Source: Patescibacteria group bacterium (GTDB taxonomy: Bacteria > Patescibacteriota > Minisyncoccia > Phycocordibacterales > JACOZG01). From it: a DNA stretch of 64,000 bases. Shown one piece after another: positions 3,013 to 64,000 of this stretch. Position 1 is the first letter of the stretch, and every line of letters starts with the position of its first letter. Position numbers and translations under genes: made by a program. The stretch lies in contig JAYEGE010000008.1 in the NCBI GenBank assembly GCA_034658935.1, positions 68,678-132,677 of the forward strand, read 5' to 3'. The notes under the pieces are model-generated. The model made no database searches and was not told where the DNA came from. It saw only the letters and a program-made list of their open reading frames with translations.

Positions 3013-4251
3013 ATGCCTAAAACACGTCGAATTAATTTTGATACCGCCGCCGCTACACCACTGGACCCGGCAATCAAGCGAGAGATGAATGCTTATCTAC
3101 GCAGCAATTTCGCTAACCCGTCTGGCTTGCACCAAGAGGGGGTGGCGGCGGCGCGTGAGCTTGCCAATGCCCGTGCGCGAGTGGCTGCCATCCTTGGTGC
3201 TCACTCTGACGAGATTGTTTTCACTAGTGGCGGGACTGAGGCGAATAACTTGGCGGTTTTTGGCGTAGTTGAGGCTCTTGAATCATTTGGACACGCCGTG
3301 TCCAAATCAAGGAAGCCCATTTGGACATGGCGTGTCCAAATGCAGGTGGTTACTTCGGCCATTGAGCACGCCTCGGTATTGGGGGCGGTGCGGGTGCTCG
3401 AGGGGCGGGGAGTGAAGGTGAGTTATCTGTCAGTAAATCGTGAAGGCTTAGTTAATCAAAAAAAATTGAAGACCGCCTTAAATAAAAAAACCAAACTCGT
3501 TTCTATTATTTATGCCCATAATGAAATTGGGGTGGTCCAACCGATCAGGGAGATTGCTAAAATTATCCGTCACCATTGTAAGCGGCATGGGACGGTTTAT
3601 CCTTATTTACATATTGATGCCTGCCAGGCGCCGCGTTTTCTTGACATCAACGTGGCTCGCTTGGGCGTAGACTTGATGACAATCAATGCTGGTAAGATTT
3701 ATGGCCCGCGTGGTATTGGTGCGCTCTACGTTAGGCGAGGTGTCGAGCTTGGGGCGCAATCAGTCGGTGGTAGCCAGGAGGGTGGACGGCGAGCAGGGAC
3801 TGAGAACGTGGCCGGTGCCATCGGCCTAGCCGGGGCCCTAGAAATTTGTGCTAAGGAGCGCGAAAAAGAAGCCAAGAGATTAAGCAAATTGCGCGATCAA
3901 TTAATTGCTGGCTTATTAAAGATTGATGGTGTTGAGTTGAATGGGCCACTGACAGAAAGATTGCCCAATAACGTTAATATTGGTGTTGGTGTCCCTAATC
4001 TAGAAAGTGAACAGGTGGTCATCGAGCTTGATGCCCAGGGCATTGCTTGTTCTACTGGCGCGGCTTGTAGCATTCCTAAACGTGACGGTTCCTATGTTAT
4101 AATGGCTCTAGGCAGAGACGAAGTGGCGGCGCGGAATGCAATTAGATTTACCCTTGGGCGGGAGGCGACGTCGGCTGACGTTAGGCATGTATTAAAAAGT
4201 CTAATAGCAATTTTCAAAAAATATGTACCAAGTCCCATCACTAAAATTTAG
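3013..4251 (+). CDS. cysteine desulfurase (class V aminotransferase, IscS/NifS group I)
   Basis: Has the TSGGTEANNLA motif, a PLP-lysine region and the C-terminal active-site Cys loop (ACSTGAACS). It carries an unusual in-frame palindromic insert at 3285-3343. Confidence 0.9.
   Translation: MPKTRRINFDTAAATPLDPAIKREMNAYLRSNFANPSGLHQEGVAAARELANARARVAAILGAHSDEIVFTSGGTEANNLAVFGVVEALESFGHAVSKSRKPIWTWRVQMQVVTSAIEHASVLGAVRVLEGRGVKVSYLSVNREGLVNQKKLKTALNKKTKLVSIIYAHNEIGVVQPIREIAKIIRHHCKRHGTVYPYLHIDACQAPRFLDINVARLGVDLMTINAGKIYGPRGIGALYVRRGVELGAQSVGGSQEGGRRAGTENVAGAIGLAGALEICAKEREKEAKRLSKLRDQLIAGLLKIDGVELNGPLTERLPNNVNIGVGVPNLESEQVVIELDAQGIACSTGAACSIPKRDGSYVIMALGRDEVAARNAIRFTLGREATSADVRHVLKSLIAIFKKYVPSPITKI
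3285..3343. repeat. tandem pair of about 23-nt palindromes (ATTTGGACACGCCGTGTCCAAAT) embedded in-frame in the desulfurase CDS
   Basis: Copy 1 (3286-3308) is a perfect palindrome. Copy 2 (3320-3342) has one mismatch. The two are separated by 11 nt. Confidence 0.8.
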
Positions 4252-11482: not shown

Positions 11483-12338
11483 ACCAAGTCATTTGGCGTT
11501 TGGCATATTGCCAATTAGTGATTTCTAGCTTTCGCAACAAGCTAATTTTCTCGCGTTGGGAATTATTTTGTTGCTTCCGCAAGAAGTCTGCAACGTAACG
11601 ATATTCTAAACCGAAATCATCTAATCTCTGCCAGGAGATTTTTTGTTTAGCGTGCAAGTTTTTCACCTCAGTGGTCAGGCCCCGCCTTAGTCTCTGTTGC
11701 AGTCGTTTGTTTATTTTCTCTTGCAAAATTTGCTTGCCTGGATTGAGGCCAATCCAGAAGGTGTCAAAGATTTGCCCCCCCAAGGACTCTCCTTCTGCAG
11801 AAGGAGAGTCCTTGGGGGGATTGGACGTTCTTGTCGCACTGGCAATCTCAATAGCCCTAATAAGACGACGAGGGTTATGTTTGTCGATATTCTTCACCCG
11901 AGCAGGATCAAGGACCTGGAGTTTTTTAAACAATTTAGTCGCTCGCCATCTCTCTAGTTCTTTTCTCAGTTCCAAATTAGGTGGTATTGCCGGCAAAGAT
12001 AGCTCGTTTAGTGCTGCCTGGATATATAACCCAGTGCCGCCGCAGATAATGGGCAGGTGGCCGCGCTCGGTAATTTCTCGGATTTTTTTCTGTGCCAGCT
12101 TTTTATATTTAGCCACGGTGAATTGCCCTCGCGGACTGGCGATATCAAGTAGGTGATGGGGGACGCCTTTCATTTCCTGTTTAGTGATCTTGCCACTGCC
12201 TATATCTAGGCCACGATAAACCTGGCGAGAATCAGCTGAGATCACCTCGCCATCAAGTTCCTTTGCCAACTCTACTGCCAGACCACTCTTGCCTGAGGAA
12301 GTTGGGCCAACTATTACTAAGACTTTTTGTCTGTCCAT
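11274..12338 (-). CDS. miaA: tRNA dimethylallyltransferase (MiaA)
   Basis: P-loop GPTSSGKS and the conserved DSRQVYRGLDIGSGK motif. It contains a 44-nt perfect palindrome in-frame. Its C-terminal about 70 aa overlap the convergent VKOR gene. Confidence 0.85.
   Translation of the reverse strand: MDRQKVLVIVGPTSSGKSGLAVELAKELDGEVISADSRQVYRGLDIGSGKITKQEMKGVPHHLLDIASPRGQFTVAKYKKLAQKKIREITERGHLPIICGGTGLYIQAALNELSLPAIPPNLELRKELERWRATKLFKKLQVLDPARVKNIDKHNPRRLIRAIEIASATRTSNPPKDSPSAEGESLGGQIFDTFWIGLNPGKQILQEKINKRLQQRLRRGLTTEVKNLHAKQKISWQRLDDFGLEYRYVADFLRKQQNNSQREKISLLRKLEITNWQYAKRQMTWFKRDSQIQWMRDEHPSSSSGQVAKMMPQIKTWRSRRKQYNTDTKRQLQNPGDRENRASQQSREPGERAK
11776..11819. repeat. 44-nt perfect palindrome inside miaA coding sequence
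   Basis: CCCCCCAAGGACTCTCCTTCTG|CAGAAGGAGAGTCCTTGGGGGG, with 22-bp arms and no mismatches. It encodes the same peptide PPKDSPSAEGESLGG on both strands. Confidence 0.9.
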
Positions 12339-13940: not shown

Positions 13941-14756
13941 ATGACGATTCGATCGATCACGCCCAACCGAACCCAGAGGCAAGAGAAACAGTACAAGCGA
14001 TTCGTCGGGGATGCGGGTGACCGCGGACTCGTCGAGGTGGATCCTGACAAGGACGCTATTCAACGGCTCATTAGTCGTGGCGGCGAGTTCCAGGGCCACC
14101 TGATCGCAGGCATTCGCCGGTTCTCGGCCGAGCAGACCGACTACACGCACGCGCAGTCTATCCTCGGTACGGACTTTATCATTCCCGAGGAGGTCATGGA
14201 AGCTCGTTCCGGCATCACCTACGCCGGCAGGCATCTGGCCTTCCTGGCGGAGACGATGCCGAGCGAGGAGAATCTGCGGTGGTGCAAGGACAACGGCTAC
14301 GCCGTCATGCCGGCACCGCCTAAGCCGATTGCACTTTTGCCCGTCCGTGCCCTCAAGCCTGCCAACTTCTATCTGAAGACCGGTGGATGGTATGCGGATG
14401 AAAGTGAGAAGTTTGCCTCAAGCGACAAGACCCGTCGGGGATGGCTCGCGGTTCGCAAGACCCTGGTGCCGAACTCGACCTCAAAGACTTGGGACGAACA
14501 AAACGAGCTCCTCTCGAGTGTCGAGGAGGTACCGAATGCGGCCGAGATGGCGTGGTTTATCACCACCTACTTCGACGTCCGTGGCATTCGTCTTTTCGAG
14601 GACATCTGGGTTCGTACTTCTAGCGTCGACTCGGACGGTAACCATGTCGACGTCGGCCATTTCGGCCAGGACGGTCTCCACGTCGGCGACGATTGGGATG
14701 ACGGGCGCAGTGGCAACGTCGGTGTGTCCTCTGCTCGGAAGTTTTCTGAGCCTTGA
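13941..14756 (+). CDS. DGR target (variable) protein with C-terminal variable repeat
   Basis: Strong SD (AAGGGAGG) 7 nt before the ATG at 13941. The last about 42 codons are the VR matching the downstream TR. The gene is GC-rich relative to its surroundings. The fold was not identified; the ligand-binding region may be C-type-lectin-like (inference). Confidence 0.75.
   Translation: MTIRSITPNRTQRQEKQYKRFVGDAGDRGLVEVDPDKDAIQRLISRGGEFQGHLIAGIRRFSAEQTDYTHAQSILGTDFIIPEEVMEARSGITYAGRHLAFLAETMPSEENLRWCKDNGYAVMPAPPKPIALLPVRALKPANFYLKTGGWYADESEKFASSDKTRRGWLAVRKTLVPNSTSKTWDEQNELLSSVEEVPNAAEMAWFITTYFDVRGIRLFEDIWVRTSSVDSDGNHVDVGHFGQDGLHVGDDWDDGRSGNVGVSSARKFSEP
14620..14744 (+). repeat. DGR variable repeat (VR)
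   Basis: 125 nt matching TR at 15213-15337 with 13 mismatches, 11 of them at TR adenines. The 3' 35 nt are identical to TR and are IMH-like. Confidence 0.85.
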
Positions 14757-15212: not shown

Positions 15213-15337
15213 CTAGCGTCAACTCGGATGGTAACCATGTCAACGTCGGCAATTTCGACCAGGACGGTCTCAACGTCAACGACTATTGGGATGACAAGCG
15301 CAATGGCAACATCGGTGTGTCCTCTGCTCGGAAGTTT
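15213..15337 (+). repeat. DGR template repeat (TR)
   Basis: Intergenic A-rich copy of VR. In the VR frame it reads as a run of AAC/AAT codons (SVNSDGNHVNVGNFDQDGLNVNDYWDDKRNGNIG). It is not part of any ORF. Confidence 0.85.
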
Positions 15338-19105: not shown

Positions 19106-19200
19106 GTACTTGTTAGAGCACATTAGTACTATGTATCCACATTTTTTGCAAATAGAAGATAGAAAAGGCCGCCCCGAAGTGGGGCGGCTGACGTTTCCGT

Positions 19201-20064
19201 TCATCCAAAGTATTCTTGTCGCGGTGGGCCGAGGCGAACAAGTTCGCAGAGCTTGGCTAAACCGGCAAGGAGGGTTAATTGATCGGTTCCCGCATCAATA
19301 TTGTGTGAGGATAGTGTGTAGCCTCTGTCCGGCCTCTCCGCCCCCATTGCTCGGCGATCTTCTCCCGGCCCAAGGGTGCAGGCGCTACCCGGTATTCGTA
19401 ACATAAGCCATTTTCCTCGCTGACACGATGCCTCGAAATCCCAATGACGGCCTGTATGCGGGGTGCCTGTAGAACACATCTTGGCATCAGCCTGGATCAT
19501 GGCAAGCTTGATGGGGATCAGGCGTGCTTCGTCGGGGCAATGAGCTAACCACCGAATTATAGCAGGCGATAGATCGACATCGAAGCCGGCAGCTTCCCTG
19601 CCGATTCCTGCACCTAAGCCGTTAATGAGCAGGAGTTGGTTGCCGGTGGCGCCGGTGTTACCTTCCCAATACAATAGGTTCCCGAGAAGGAGTTCCAGGG
19701 TGGAGCGAATGCATCGCATTATCGTCAAGCCTTTGACTCTGGCTTTGTCTGGAGAATGGATAGTCAATAGGGTGGGCAATTCAAAATTCCAACCTTGCCA
19801 GTTTTCGGGATCATCCTCTTCCATTGGTGAAAGCACCTCGCTGAAACCCCATGCCCGGCTTTTTTCAGGTGGTACGAAGTCGGGCAAATCGAATCGTTCT
19901 TGCCGATGTCTGATTCCGGCTGCACCAGAGCGTAAGTAGCTAATCAATGCAGGCCAGACTGCCCAATGAATTCTAATCCCGATTGTTTGCCCCTTGGACC
20001 CAAGAGTTAACTCATACCAAGCCGGACGGTCCTGGCGAACCAAGGCCGTAGAGTTTATGGTCAT
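19201..20064 (-). CDS. hypothetical protein, GC-rich relative to neighbours
   Basis: 287-aa ORF with no recognisable family. Possible Rossmann-like GLGAGIG. It is followed by its own hairpin plus T-run terminator at 19140-19187. Confidence 0.5.
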   Translation of the reverse strand: MTINSTALVRQDRPAWYELTLGSKGQTIGIRIHWAVWPALISYLRSGAAGIRHRQERFDLPDFVPPEKSRAWGFSEVLSPMEEDDPENWQGWNFELPTLLTIHSPDKARVKGLTIMRCIRSTLELLLGNLLYWEGNTGATGNQLLLINGLGAGIGREAAGFDVDLSPAIIRWLAHCPDEARLIPIKLAMIQADAKMCSTGTPHTGRHWDFEASCQRGKWLMLRIPGSACTLGPGEDRRAMGAERPDRGYTLSSHNIDAGTDQLTLLAGLAKLCELVRLGPPRQEYFG

Positions 20065-20144
20065 AATTATCCCTCCGCATATATTTTGAATTAACTGTAA
20101 TGAACAACGCTGTGCTGAGTTTAACTATCTGGATGTTTTTTGCA

Positions 20145-20172
20145 AATGTTAAACACCGGGTGTTTAACATTT
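20145..20172. repeat. REP-like 28-nt perfect palindrome (AAATGTTAAACACC|GGTGTTTAACATTT)
   Basis: It overlaps the dprA stop codon. The arms closely resemble the palindromes flanking the RAYT gene at 63272-63965 (AATGTTAGACATT..AATGTCTAACATT). Confidence 0.7.
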
Positions 20173-21038
20173 CAATTTAGCCGAATTTCCCCGCCTGTTT
20201 CCTTGACGATGCCTTTGATTTCAAGAATACCGAGGAGAGAATTGGCGGTGCTGGTTTCAAGTCCGAGGGCGCGGATGAGGTTGTCGCGTGGGAGAGTCTC
20301 GATTTGGAGAATGTCTACTATCTTTTTTTCGTCCGGCGATAAATCTTGGAGCGGTAATTTAGCTGGCCCGCTTTCTTCGGTATTGAAACTCAAGGCTTCT
20401 AATAATTCCTGAGAGGAAGTAATGGGAGTGGCGCCTTGGCGAATTAACCAATTGGTCCCGGCAGAGCCGGGCGAGAAGATGGAGCCAGGCACGGTCAATA
20501 CGTCGCGGTTATAATCGAGTGCTAAGCGGGCGGTGATAAGGGTCCCCGACTTGAGTCCGGCCTCTATCACTAAGGTGGCCTGAGACAGGCCGGCCATGAT
20601 GCGATTGCGGCGGGGGAAGGTATGGATTCCGGCTGGCTTGGTGGGCGAGTATTCTGAGAGGAGGGCTCCGCCGTGCTCGACGATCTCGTCGGCCAAGTGT
20701 TTGTTTGAGTGGGGATGAAGAACGGACCTATCTAATCCAGAACCAGGCACGGCAATGGTGGTGAGTCCGGCGCTTAGCGCCGCCTGGTGGGCGATAGTGT
20801 CTATACCCAAGGCTAAACCAGAAACTATAACAATTGGATAAGCCGCTAGTCCGGCGATTAATACCTCGCAAACCTCGCGGCCGTAATGGGAGTATTTGCG
20901 TGAGCCGACTACAGTCAAAAACACAGCGTTGTCTTGCGGCCAGGCGCTCTCTAAATAGAGTTTTTCTGGCGGATCGGCCATTTCAGCCAATGCCTTCGGA
21001 AACTCTTCTGGGCCCAGCTCTCTAATGGGAGATGGCAT
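20172..21038 (-). CDS. dprA: DNA processing protein DprA (Smf)
   Basis: Rossmann-like DprA core: VVGSRKYSHYGREV..VSGLALGIDTIAHQAAL. A C-terminal winged-helix-like tail follows. Confidence 0.85.
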   Translation of the reverse strand: MPSPIRELGPEEFPKALAEMADPPEKLYLESAWPQDNAVFLTVVGSRKYSHYGREVCEVLIAGLAAYPIVIVSGLALGIDTIAHQAALSAGLTTIAVPGSGLDRSVLHPHSNKHLADEIVEHGGALLSEYSPTKPAGIHTFPRRNRIMAGLSQATLVIEAGLKSGTLITARLALDYNRDVLTVPGSIFSPGSAGTNWLIRQGATPITSSQELLEALSFNTEESGPAKLPLQDLSPDEKKIVDILQIETLPRDNLIRALGLETSTANSLLGILEIKGIVKETGGEIRLN

Positions 21039-60880: not shown

Positions 60881-61612
60881 ATGACCGACACCCTGCTCCA
60901 ACTTAAAGATGTCCACGTTCAATACGGCGGCGTTAAGGCCCTCGATGATGTGTCAGTGGAGATTGATGAGGGAGAGGTGGTGGCCTTGATGGGGCCCAAT
61001 GGGGCAGGGAAGTCGACGGTGCTTAAGGCGATCTTTGGCCTGGCGCCAATTGCCAAGGGTAAAGTGCTCTGGCATGAGCATCCGGTGGCTCCGCGACCAG
61101 ACGAGATGGTGGCTCGAGGACTCTCCTTCGTTCCTCAAGGTCGGCGGGTGTTCCGCCGCCTAACGGTGCAGGAGAACTTGGAGATTGGTGGTTATGTTAT
61201 TAAAGATAAGAAATTGGTCCAGGAGAGGATAAAGGAAGTCTCAGAAATCTTCCCTGACCTCAAAACTAAACTTAAGGCCAAATCGGGGACCCTCTCTGGC
61301 GGCCAACAACAAATGCTCGCCATCGCCCGCGGCCTCATTACTGAGCCTAAGGTACTCTTACTCGACGAACCTTCGCTCGGCCTCTCGCCTAAATTAGTTA
61401 AGGAAGTCTTTGCTAAAATTAAAGAAATAAACGAGCGCCATAAGACGGCGATTATGGTAGTAGAACATAATTTGAAGTCCCTTCTCCAAATTGTCCACCG
61501 AGCCTATGTTCTCGACAAGGGGCGCCTGGTCGGCGATGGTCCCGCCGCCCAATTTGCTGAAAAAGATTTCCTCAAGAAAGTCTTTCTCGGCCAAGTTGAA
61601 GCAGCAGCCTAG
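60881..61612 (+). CDS. livF: ABC transporter ATP-binding protein (LivF type)
   Basis: Walker A GPNGAGKST, signature LSGGQQQ, Walker B LLLDEP. Confidence 0.85.
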   Translation: MTDTLLQLKDVHVQYGGVKALDDVSVEIDEGEVVALMGPNGAGKSTVLKAIFGLAPIAKGKVLWHEHPVAPRPDEMVARGLSFVPQGRRVFRRLTVQENLEIGGYVIKDKKLVQERIKEVSEIFPDLKTKLKAKSGTLSGGQQQMLAIARGLITEPKVLLLDEPSLGLSPKLVKEVFAKIKEINERHKTAIMVVEHNLKSLLQIVHRAYVLDKGRLVGDGPAAQFAEKDFLKKVFLGQVEAAA

Positions 61613-61617
61613 CTGTG

Positions 61618-61650
61618 CAACACTAAGTGTTGCACAGCTAGTGTCTTGAA
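61618..61650 (+). terminator. hairpin terminator after livF
   Basis: AGCTGTGCAACACTAAGTGTTGCACAGCT is a perfect palindrome. Confidence 0.5.
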
Positions 61651-62263: not shown

Positions 62264-63262
62264 AGTTTAAGTATTGGAATTGTGGGGTTGCCAAACGTCG
62301 GGAAGTCGACGCTTTTTAATGCGCTCACCAAGAAGGAGGTGCCGGCAGAGAATTATCCTTTCTGCACTATTGATCCATCGGTGGGCATTGTCACTGTGCC
62401 TGACAAACGGCTGGACATATTAACCAAGCTTTCTAAGTCGGCCAAGACTATCCCCGCCGTGGTTGAGTTTGTCGACATTGCTGGGCTGGTTAGGGGTGCG
62501 GCTGATGGAGAAGGGTTGGGCAATAAATTTCTTTCCCATATTCGCGAGGTAGACGCCATTGCCCAAGTGGTCCGCGCCTTTTCTGATAGCAAGGTCACTC
62601 ACGTGGCTGACAAAATTGACCCGCTTAGTGACGCTGAGGTCATTAATCTCGAGCTGGTTATGGCTGATGCTCAGACAATAGCGAAGCGCCAAGGGAGCAT
62701 CGCTCGAGAGGTGAAGCGAGGCGATAAGGAGGAAGTAGCGGAGAATAAACTTCTGATCAAGCTGGGAGAAGCGCTCGAGGCGGGCCAATTAGTTTCTGGT
62801 TTGGAGTTGGATGAGGTCGAACAAGTCCAACTTAAGTCCCTTCACCTACTCACCGCCAAGCCAATCTTATATGTCGTCAACACTTCTGAGGCGACAGAGA
62901 ATTTACTTGAGGGTCTCAAAGAACAATTGCCTGGTCCCTCGCTCGAGATTGACCCGATCTTTGGAGAGGGGCTTGATAAGCTAACTCAGGCTAGTTATGA
63001 GCTGCTCGACCTGATCACTTTTTTTACCACTGGAGAAGATGAGACCCGGGCCTGGACCATTAAGCGGGGGAGCACAGCACCAATTGCTGGCACTGCCATT
63101 CATACCGATTTTAAAGATAAATTTATTAAGGCCGAAGTGATTACTTATGAAAAATTAGTTGATGCCGAAGGCTACGCAATGGCCCGTGAAAAAGGATGGG
63201 TCCGAACCGAGGGCAAAGAATACATTGTTCAAGACGGCGATGTCATTGAGTTCAAAATCTAG
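62264..63262 (+). CDS. ychF: redox-regulated ribosome-binding ATPase YchF (Obg-family GTPase)
   Basis: G1 motif GIVGLPNVGKSTLFNAL and a C-terminal TGS domain. The start is taken at the internal ATG. Confidence 0.9.
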   Translation, partial: SLSIGIVGLPNVGKSTLFNALTKKEVPAENYPFCTIDPSVGIVTVPDKRLDILTKLSKSAKTIPAVVEFVDIAGLVRGAADGEGLGNKFLSHIREVDAIAQVVRAFSDSKVTHVADKIDPLSDAEVINLELVMADAQTIAKRQGSIAREVKRGDKEEVAENKLLIKLGEALEAGQLVSGLELDEVEQVQLKSLHLLTAKPILYVVNTSEATENLLEGLKEQLPGPSLEIDPIFGEGLDKLTQASYELLDLITFFTTGEDETRAWTIKRGSTAPIAGTAIHTDFKDKFIKAEVITYEKLVDAEGYAMAREKGWVRTEGKEYIVQDGDVIEFKI

Positions 63263-63271
63263 AGGACATCT

Positions 63272-63300
63272 AGATGTTAGACATTCAATGTCTAACATCT
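63272..63300. repeat. 29-nt perfect palindrome (AGATGTTAGACATT-C-AATGTCTAACATCT), REP-like element flanking RAYT
   Basis: It overlaps the RAYT stop codon. It is the exact reverse complement of the core of the palindrome at 63937-63965. Confidence 0.85.
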
Positions 63301-63924
63301 GTTGATATCTAACTCCTCTTCTATTTCCTCAGCCTTTTTCTTGGCTACAGAGCTGGCGAGAAAGCTTTTGTATTCGTCTTTATCATTAAATTGATCAGTG
63401 ACGATACTCGGAGTCAATAAACAGGGCCAGCGATTAGATTTTAAGTAATCGTTACGGCTATTCCATCCGCCGGTATGTTTATGAATATAGGCAGAGAGAT
63501 GAAGAAGTTGGTCATTATCTTCAATATGAACCGATTTGTATCGTCCTTGAAATAAATGGCCAGATTGCTGGTATTTATTATTGAAGTATTTGGTATGGGA
63601 ATTGAGCAATCTTTGCATGTAGCGAAATATCCCCTCATCGACATGGTTTTTTAGTAAGAGGTGGAAGTGGTTGGGCATAAGGGAGAAAGCCACCAAGGAG
63701 ACCTTCCTTTGCTGGACAATTTCTTTAATCGTTTCTTGGGAAGTGTTAAACATTGAATGTCTAACAAAATAGGAGACAGGGCGGGTTAGATTGGTGAGGG
63801 TTAGGTCTGATTGAAAGTGTAAGATCGAGAACAAAAATCTCACCCAATCTTGTTGATCCCGAAAAATCTGGTTTTTCAAAACCCCGCGGTTATATACATG
63901 GTAGTATTCGTCAGGAATTTTCAT
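63292..63924 (-). mobile_element. REP-associated tyrosine transposase (RAYT), IS200/IS605 Y1 HUH family
   Basis: N-terminal YHVYNRG, HUH motif MPNHFHLLL and catalytic Tyr in GRYKS. Inverted palindromic repeats flank it. Confidence 0.8.
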
Positions 63925-63936
63925 CTGTCTATTATC

Positions 63937-63965
63937 TAATGTTAGACATTGAATGTCTAACATTA
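63937..63965. repeat. 29-nt perfect palindrome (TAATGTTAGACATT-G-AATGTCTAACATTA), REP-like element
   Basis: It sits 12 nt upstream of the RAYT ATG. It is inverted relative to the downstream copy. Confidence 0.85.
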
Positions 63966-64000
63966 ATGAACAAGTATTGAGTGTTGGATACAAAAACACC

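Follow-up and report, generated by a model that had tools for sequence, protein, structure and literature searches.

A REP-like hairpin at the dprA stop codon of a patescibacterium, probably a member of a Patescibacteria-wide family tied to RAYT-like transposases

Introduction

Systems in which repetitive extragenic palindromes (REPs) are paired with REP-associated tyrosine transposases (RAYTs) have been characterized mainly in Proteobacteria. A different kind of palindromic repeat, the Rickettsia palindromic element (RPE), reportedly described by Ogata et al. in 2000, is said to lie in frame within coding sequences, including those of housekeeping genes, where it contributes a short peptide in tolerated loops; RPEs measure about 100 to 150 bp and have no known transposase. 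The REP and REP-doublet (REPIN) systems with their RAYTs (also TnpA-REP) have been described from Enterobacteria and Pseudomonas (PMC3116915, PMC3337134, PMC5581495). In classical REPs, the hairpin has a conserved guide tetranucleotide of the GTAG type at its 5' foot (PMC6006769), and RAYTs are present in a single copy per genome and are vertically inherited (PMC5581495). Here, we analyze a hairpin found at the stop codon of dprA in a Patescibacteria group bacterium (GenBank assembly GCA_034658935.1, contig JAYEGE010000008.1, positions 68,678 to 132,677). This stretch of 64,000 nucleotides (nt), hereinafter the window, also encodes a RAYT-like protein of the Y1/HUH type.

We propose, with a probability of about 80%, that the palindrome at dprA represents one solitary copy of a mobile, REP-like hairpin whose family extends across Patescibacteria and is tied to a distinct clade of RAYT-like Y1/HUH enzymes. 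Patescibacteria are not mentioned in two surveys of RAYTs (PMC5581495, PMC6006769), and a text search of the literature, in which the term RAYT matched the starts of words and thus brought up unrelated papers, returned no description of such repeats in Patescibacteria.

Results

The hairpin at the dprA stop codon

Reading of the sequence together with an inverted-repeat scan delimits the hairpin to 20144..20172 (no strand) as a perfect palindrome of 14+1+14 nt, AAATGTTAAACACC-G-GGTGTTTAACATTT. The original prediction, made from the letters of the window, had the palindrome and its arms right but left out the central G and set the start one base too late. The dprA gene (DNA-processing protein A; 20172..21038, minus strand), whose product matches Pfam PF02481 (DNA_processg_A) at 4.6e-66 and also PF17782, ends at this element: its TGA stop (20174..20172) and the palindrome overlap by 1 nt, the last base of both coinciding, just as a position at a gene boundary had been predicted. 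On the dprA-sense strand, the RNA fold has an energy of -18.7 kcal/mol (z = -2.7), with a 13-bp stem and a 3-nt loop. The copy is an extragenic singlet.

About 43 kb away, two palindromes at 63272-63300 and 63937-63965 flank the RAYT-like gene; both are perfect and have the same 14+1+14 geometry. They have 11 of the 14 arm positions in common with the dprA copy, and the differences lie at arm position 9 (A:T versus G:C) and in the two innermost pairs (CC:GG versus TT:AA), each one being mirrored by a compensating change on the opposite arm. The prediction of a shared arm sequence with divergent central bases is thus upheld, with arm position 9 as a further difference. The motif AATGTTARACA occurs four times in the window against an expectation of 0.09, a number reached in none of 100 shuffles, and the shorter TGTTARACA occurs nine times (0.54 expected). 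Eight of these nine matches lie inside four hairpins, namely, the dprA copy, the two flanks and a degenerate copy within the RAYT-like gene, and the ninth is a lone half-site at 1496. The full dyad pattern, with up to three mismatches allowed, gives four matches in the window (0.00 expected), and TGTTARACA is absent from all other short palindromes listed by the inverted-repeat scan. The likeness is hence far beyond chance, which settles a doubt that the original prediction had itself raised.

Four copies of a Parcubacteria metagenome-assembled genome (MAG; VMFT01), the locus L058 and the copy inside the RAYT gene of L105 have exactly the same 23-nt core as the dprA copy; therefore, the dprA variant is a regular member of the family and not a look-alike. 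Extending the search past the window end by a further 10 kb gave no additional copies, so that the roughly 74 kb in view contain four copies of the dprA pattern, three of them at the RAYT gene. A search of the whole window against Rfam at gathering thresholds returned tRNAs only, with no match at the hairpins.

Distribution across Patescibacteria and association with RAYT genes

Reference genomes were scanned with the pattern ATGTTARACA-N5-TGTYTAACAT; the copy counts given in this and the following sections (131, 128 or 102 copies, depending on the question) are those among the matches listed. The core was found in at least 116 reference-genome stretches, nearly all of them from Patescibacteria, with about two chance matches estimated. 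The lineages include Saccharibacteria, Paceibacteria/Parcubacteria, Nomura-, Vogel-, Nealson-, Yanofsky- and Zambryskibacteria and others, and a single MAG has up to 8 copies among the matches listed. Most copies are singlets. Within a genome, the copies are nearly identical, with a mean difference of 0.93 nt versus 3.38 nt when genome labels are shuffled (the minimum of 1,000 shuffles being 2.37). The predicted dispersal of a REP family is accordingly borne out.

Among the 131 copies, 28 have a homologue of the RAYT-like protein (43 to 52% identity to the Y1 protein of the window) no more than 300 nt away, and the remainder are solitary; in other genomes, solitary copies usually have the flank sequence of their own RAYT. 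An independent sample, obtained through a protein search of JGI metagenomes, showed that many RAYT relatives carry palindromes and that some have no flanking palindrome at all. In the RAYT loci that have them, the palindromes are situated about 20 to 60 nt upstream of the gene, at about +145 to +160 inside the open reading frame (ORF) and at or just past the stop. Their sequence differs with the RAYT lineage (e.g., TGTCAAACA, TGTTCAACA, TGTGCAAAGCC, TGTTCAAAGT, AATCTTACGAGGCT and TGAAAGAGGC), and within one RAYT locus the same palindrome sequence is found at whichever of these positions are present.

A few matches come from outside the phylum. Two Staphylococcus matches (L006 and L084) have a nonpalindromic centre and look like chance. 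Those from a Gammaproteobacteria MAG (L029) and an Odoribacter MAG (L030) are perfect extended palindromes, which could reflect either contamination in binning or real spread.

Conservation of the folded stem

The stem pairs that the search pattern leaves free permit an assessment of pairing. Of 128 copies, 117 have a Watson-Crick pair at the wholly unconstrained position 10/14 (C:G in 70 and T:A in 47), and 108 have one at the R:Y pair 7 (A:T in 73 and G:C in 35), the rest of the latter being mostly G:T or A:C intermediates. Further, 24 copies have a palindromic extension of at least 4 bp past the core, of lineage-specific sequence, versus 1.9 expected from shuffled flanks. These compensatory changes in the stem point to the maintenance of the folded structure, beyond the sequence alone. 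The loop is 3 nt long (CGA/TCG, CCG/CGG or TCA/TGA) and occurs in either orientation. About a quarter to a third of the copies have an extension consisting of an A-run and a T-run that gives them the appearance of bidirectional terminators. The flanks of the 128 copies display only a preference for A/T.

Sites occupied by solitary copies

Among the 102 solitary copies, 69 are intergenic and 33 lie inside ORFs. The intergenic ones favour gene ends: with a limit of 30 nt, 46% lie close to a gene 3' end, versus 29% under random intergenic placement, and 3% close to a 5' end, versus 21% (n = 69). The clustering at gene 3' ends that had been suggested as a check is thus present. Eighteen copies fall between 14 nt inside an ORF end and 5 nt past the stop codon. 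Given the 3'-end bias and these stop-adjacent copies, the arrangement at dprA is a typical one.

One frame of the palindrome holds a TAA or TAG and another an ATG, and at times the palindrome provides the stop codon of a gene, as in the RAYT and ABC-ATPase genes of the window. All 33 intragenic copies are read in one of the two stop-free frames, which encode xV(K/R)HxV(S/F)NI or MLNTxCLT. Comparison of ten ORFs with intragenic copies with Pfam left L077 unmatched and assigned the other nine to conserved families, several of the ORFs being housekeeping genes; the families are TsaD, TIM (two copies), UvrA, LeuRS, TopA, an amidase, a class-V aminotransferase, NusA and a MiaB-like radical-SAM enzyme, from loci of Patescibacteria MAGs (L049, L109, L017, L023, L111, L021, L096, L046 and L043). 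Compared with four orthologues, one of them the TopA encoded in the window, the TopA of L111 is longer by 8 to 13 residues at the copy.

The RAYT-like locus and its hairpins

The RAYT-like gene (63292..63924, minus strand) encodes a protein of 210 amino acids with a Pfam Y1_Tnp domain and is the only RAYT gene in the roughly 74 kb. It ends with a TAG stop within the 3' flanking hairpin (63272..63300, no strand; AGATGTTAGACATT-C-AATGTCTAACATCT), which is itself placed 11 nt past the ychF stop. The 5' flanking hairpin (63937..63965, no strand; TAATGTTAGACATT-G-AATGTCTAACATTA) forms part of a putative RAYT promoter, with a -35-like TAGACA at 63959..63954, a 17-nt spacer and a -10-like GATAAT at 63936..63931. 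The ATG at 63924 comes 6 nt beyond the -10-like box and hence implies a near-leaderless RAYT mRNA. This layout, in which the left arm supplies TAGACA or TGGACA and is followed after exactly 17 nt by a TATAAT-like box, the spacer being the remaining hairpin plus 3 nt, is found in 12 of 25 RAYT-upstream copies versus 3 of 226 directions at solitary copies. In nine further RAYT-upstream copies, the right arm offers TTAACA as the -35-like element with a spacer of 16 to 18 nt. Such an overlap of promoter and hairpin implies a built-in opportunity for the RAYT to regulate its own predicted promoter.

A degenerate hairpin inside the RAYT ORF (63742..63768, no strand) starts at nt +158 and encodes FVRHSMFNT. 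Twenty-two RAYT loci of the close clade have retained an internal hairpin, at +158 in 20 of them and at +161 and +164 in the other two; the internal copy encodes V(K/R)HxVFN (examples being L027, L086 and L105). In distant RAYT clades, the internal copy covaries with the flanking ones, which implies that it is the DNA dyad, rather than the peptide, that stays matched between the copies. The orientation of the hairpin loop relative to the RAYT gene, checked by eye, is not fixed.

With respect to base composition, the RAYT ORF has a GC content of 0.393 against a window mean of 0.485, and 63001-64000 is the lowest-GC kilobase of the window (0.402). This would be compatible with a later acquisition of the RAYT cassette.

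The RAYT-like protein

The protein scores 49.3 bits against Pfam Y1_Tnp (cut-off of 23) and has the motifs YYHVYNRG (YYHxxNRG) and NHFHL, the latter being the HUH motif, as well as a tyrosine at position 146; H86, H88 and Y146 are invariant among 52 relatives. All 15 of 15 aligned relatives match the NCBIfam model REP_Tyr_transpos (best E-value, 7e-13), and 1 of the 15 matches the NCBIfam IS200 model. A sequence-only search of PDB was marginal (2xm3 at 6e-4 and 4er8 at 0.09). A clearer result came from a fold search with an AlphaFold2 model, which was built from an alignment of database homologues and has a mean predicted local distance difference test score of 90.5: its best PDB match was 4er8, the E. 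coli RAYT-REP complex, followed by the TnpA proteins of ISDra2 and IS608. From the Pfam domain, the REP_Tyr_transpos matches of the relatives and the modelled fold, the protein is assigned to the Y1/HUH enzymes. There are about 3,000 relatives; among the 120 listed, about twenty carry a source name, which is Patescibacteria or unclassified bacteria, and most are annotated as "transposase."

The dprA-topA spacer

Downstream of the hairpin and on the same strand, between dprA and topA, there is an ORF of 287 amino acids (19201..20064, minus strand) with no match in Pfam or NCBIfam and a single relative, at 28% identity, among 5.8 billion proteins. It is missing from the dprA-topA spacers of the relatives L118 and L119. 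The original prediction had spoken of a GC-anomalous orphan gene at this place: it is an orphan in part, given the one distant relative, but its GC content of 0.534 is not anomalous beside that of dprA (0.536; window, 0.485), and the low-GC gene in the window is instead the RAYT.

The closest relative, L118, has no hairpin at this site, its dprA stop being followed directly by TTTGCAAAACAT. There, the stop leads into TTTGCAAAACATTTCTATCCGTAGTACTAATG and on to the ATG of topA, and the promoter-like element is also found in L119 and upstream of topA in the window. On the minus strand of the window, the corresponding order is TGA, AATGTTAAACACCCGGTGTTTAACA and TTTGCAAAAAACAT. The hairpin thus plausibly resembles an insertion of about 25 to 27 nt between the dprA stop and the promoter-like TTTGCAAAA of the next gene.

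An 11-nt direct repeat, TTTGCAAAAAA (about 19141-19152 and 20133-20143, minus strand), brackets the near-orphan ORF together with a canonical GC-rich terminator with a T-tract (19188-19168, minus strand), which was called by a terminator scan and ends that ORF 1 kb from the hairpin. One copy of the repeat begins the conserved promoter-like element of topA (TTTGCAAAA…TAGTACTAATG) and the other comes after the dprA hairpin. This suggests that the start of the promoter may have been duplicated when the near-orphan gene was inserted between dprA and topA. A second hairpin bounding this insertion was looked for, and only the TTTGCAAAAAA repeat and the normal terminator were found. A weak promoter-like TTAACA-17-GATAGT (20124..20152, minus strand; 9 of 12 positions matching), whose -35-like hexamer is the hairpin arm, faces the near-orphan ORF. 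Donation of a promoter to that gene by the hairpin was considered and set aside: the layout is at background, occurring in 8% of solitary copy directions, and may be due to chance.

Other hairpins and features of the window

A perfect 16+1+16 hairpin at 61609..61641 (no strand), CTAGCTGTGCAACACT-A-AGTGTTGCACAGCTAG (…TGTGCAACACT-A-AGTGTTGCACA…), holds in its left arm the TAG stop of an ABC-ATPase gene (60881..61612). Its core, TGTGCAACA...TGTTGCACA, flanks RAYT homologues in L142, L011 and L040, and from this recurrence we assign it to a sister subfamily that has no cognate RAYT in view. Two adjacent related hairpins at 3285..3342 (3285-3307 and 3318-3342, no strand), ATTTGGACACG-C-CGTGTCCAAAT and CATTTGGACATGGCGTGTCCAAATG, constitute the only tandem pair in the window. 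With the pattern TTTGGACAY…RTGTCCAAA, they lie in frame inside a cysteine desulfurase (IscS/NifS) ORF (3013..4251, plus strand), and in an alignment with PDB 4r5f the IscS of the window has 16 extra residues (…ESFGHAVSKSRKPIWTWRVQMQ…) exactly there.

A 44-nt perfect palindrome, CCCCCCAAGGACTCTCCTTCTGCAGAAGGAGAGTCCTTGGGGGG, at 11776-11819 is unrelated to the hairpin family. At about 15.3 to 16.8 kb (L001 7037-8454), there are genes with RVT_1 reverse-transcriptase and bAvd domains, which suggest a diversity-generating retroelement. A 125-nt repeat of 89.6% identity (14620-14744 and 15213-15337) could be its template/variable repeat pair.

Discussion

A possible mechanism and what weighs against it

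Taking these findings together, we envisage the following scheme. When DNA is single stranded, for example on the lagging-strand template, the stem of 13 to 14 bp with its loop of 1 to 3 nt would fold; a Y1 transposase could recognize the folded hairpin and cut and rejoin the DNA beside it; and the hairpin of about 25 to 40 nt would thereby be copied to new sites. The insertions that survive would be those at low-harm sites, just past stops or in the two stop-free frames within genes. The identity of the mobilizing enzyme is the weakest link in this scheme, and both it and the chemistry are what we infer from the comparisons above. The original prediction presumed that the RAYT of the window had mobilized the dprA hairpin; this is unproven because the dprA copy belongs to a subtype other than that of the RAYT flanks. 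Any present role for the hairpin is likely to be secondary. It might shield the 3' end of the dprA mRNA or serve in part as a barrier to transcription or translation; by analogy with the REPs of E. coli, a hairpin so near a stop could stabilize the mRNA 3' end or interfere with translation termination. As we read it, the hairpin at dprA is the footprint of a selfish element and not a regulator of competence.

Several observations count against a mobile REP-like hairpin. The dprA copy and the flanks of the resident RAYT differ at 6 of 25 core bases and hence represent separate subtypes, and the roughly 74 kb contain only one solitary copy of the dprA subtype, next to three hairpins of related subfamilies. 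Copy numbers are low beside those of classical REPs. Neither GTAG nor CTAC is present in or beside any of the four copies, whose foot is A/T-rich (AAATG...CATTT), and confinement to extragenic sites, which characterizes REPs, fails in the family as a whole, with 33 of the 102 solitary copies listed lying in frame inside ORFs. The RAYT-like protein reaches 37.3 bits against NCBIfam REP_Tyr_transpos, under the curated cut-off of 80, and in its subclade the NP of YIHRNP and about 12 residues following the catalytic tyrosine are missing; since this variant is also present in P0125, it is not a private decay. The genome that provides the apparent empty site has a DprA of only 77% identity, and MAFFT favours another alignment, in which the gap is 12 nt long; given this distance and this alternative, insertion at the exact site is plausible rather than proven. 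Finally, for all members of the family, both transposition and binding are conclusions drawn from sequence comparison.

Alternative explanations

The hairpin could instead be an intrinsic (Rho-independent) terminator of dprA, its likeness to the RAYT flanks being a coincidence among AT-rich terminators. It does lie directly after the dprA stop and has a stable RNA fold; ordinary hairpins are found between dprA and topA in L120 (directly past the dprA stop) and L119 (just upstream of the topA promoter); and the A-run/T-run extensions noted above lend part of the family a terminator-like look. However, the dprA strand continues after the stem with GCAAAAAAC in place of a U-tract, the stem is AT-rich, and the terminator scan, which does call the T-tract terminator that the same genome has 1 kb away, does not call it; for these reasons, it is not a canonical intrinsic terminator. 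Nor would termination account for an arm motif 40-fold beyond chance or for the recurrence of an identical 23-nt core in ORFs and at RAYT genes of dozens of distant genomes, and we consider this explanation improbable. Much the same holds for the proposal, which we regard as very doubtful, that the dyad serves as an operator to which a dimeric regulator binds (the RAYT itself might be the repressor), so that its spread would mark a regulon and not mobility. A perfect dyad with a sequence kept across classes, the overlap with the RAYT promoter in about half of the upstream copies and the TTAACA-17-GATAGT facing the gene after dprA are what such a regulator would lead one to expect. Against it, solitary copies shun 5' regions and prefer 3' ends, a third of them are within coding sequences, and solitary copies have promoter-like layouts no more often than background. 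Moreover, the half-sites change jointly within copies and the variable palindromic extensions are kept; therefore, recognition of a folded strand fits better than independent recognition of half-sites.

The adjacency to dprA, the maintenance of one short sequence throughout the phylum and the competence genes carried by Patescibacteria might bring to mind a DNA-uptake signal for natural transformation, the more so as paired uptake sequences in Neisseria form terminator-like dyads. Known uptake sequences occur about once per kb, a density far from the four copies in about 74 kb (three at the RAYT gene) or the approximately eight in one MAG seen here; the sequence covaries with the RAYT lineage; and competence genes show no enrichment for nearby copies among the more than 100 loci examined. 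We find this idea hardly credible. A tentative case, and one that deserves more serious attention, can be made for a dead relic, deposited by a different RAYT that is absent or outside our view, or brought in via recombination, and not mobilizable by the RAYT of the window. The divergence of the dprA copy from the resident flanks contrasts with the average of 0.93 nt in other genomes, the low GC content of the resident RAYT (0.393 versus 0.485) suggests that it arrived later, and two more hairpin subfamilies (61609 and 3285/3318) are present without a cognate RAYT in view. Conversely, each of the six core differences is a transition by which both the purine/pyrimidine pattern and the pairing are preserved, with the invariant arm bases ATGTTA-ACA intact, and the view extends over only about 74 kb of the genome. 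Mixed A/G types also coexist in single RAYT loci (L066, L094 and the internal copy of the window), which makes cross-recognition plausible.

Implications

A REP-like family would not have been expected in genomes of about 1 Mb with almost no intergenic space, and the sites described here, directly at stops and in frame within genes, show where such elements survive in them. The RAYT-like protein also provides a candidate enzyme for in-frame palindrome insertions. If this is true, a long-unexplained phenomenon becomes experimentally tractable by virtue of the attached enzyme. The pattern TGTTARACAY-N3-RTGTYTAACA offers a simple marker for genome dynamics and for mis-binning in MAGs of Patescibacteria, and annotators should be warned that conserved proteins gain 8 to 16 residues from the hairpins, which also bring in start and stop codons. 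At the dprA locus itself, the practical message is modest.

A further proposal, for which we see the evidence as evenly balanced, is that Patescibacteria possess a distinct REP/RAYT system, defined by a class-wide near-constant core, by the routine in-frame colonization of protein-coding genes, essential ones such as TopA, TsaD, LeuRS, NusA and IscS among them, by an attached enzyme and by the locking together of gene, regulation and substrate. With one hairpin copy inside the transposase gene and another forming its promoter, the transposase gene, its regulation and its substrate would be locked to one another. The copy at the fixed +158 position and the promoter copy are also one possible reason for the near-constancy of the core.

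Comparison with known systems

As in the REP/RAYT systems, a short palindromic hairpin is repeated in the genome and the same sequence is found on either side of a Y1/HUH gene. The hairpin sequence covaries with the RAYT lineage, copies are homogeneous within a genome and prefer gene 3' ends, and the top structural match of the modelled protein is the E. coli RAYT-REP complex (4er8). Unlike those systems, the family has no GTAG-type guide, its stem is AT-rich rather than GC-rich, and its copies are singlets of low copy number in place of REPIN doublets or bacterial interspersed mosaic elements. Its core is near-identical across classes of the phylum, whereas REP cores are species specific, and about a third of its solitary copies are intragenic and in frame. 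There is an extra copy at the fixed +158 position in the RAYT ORF, and the upstream copy forms the putative RAYT promoter. The protein, too, is set apart by its length of about 210 to 225 amino acids, its C-terminal extension and its score below the NCBIfam cut-off.

The IS200/IS605 insertion sequences (IS608 and ISDra2; 2vjv and 2xm3) share the Y1/HUH fold, and their enzymes likewise recognize hairpins in single-stranded DNA; in IS200, hairpins near gene ends also control expression. Those elements, however, have two unlike ends and move with the whole gene as multicopy insertion sequences, often with tnpB, whereas here the flanking hairpins are identical, tnpB is missing and the dispersed unit is the hairpin and not the gene. 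With the RPEs, the family has in common the presence of palindromes in frame inside housekeeping genes; it differs in the size of its unit, about 25 to 40 bp, and in having a candidate enzyme, the RAYT, that is physically and evolutionarily linked to it. In terms of these comparisons, the family is a REP/RAYT-type system that lacks three textbook features, namely, the GTAG guide, an exclusively extragenic location and the arrangement in doublets. To these systems it adds conservation of the core throughout the phylum, an intragenic copy in the RAYT gene and the in-frame colonization of genes.

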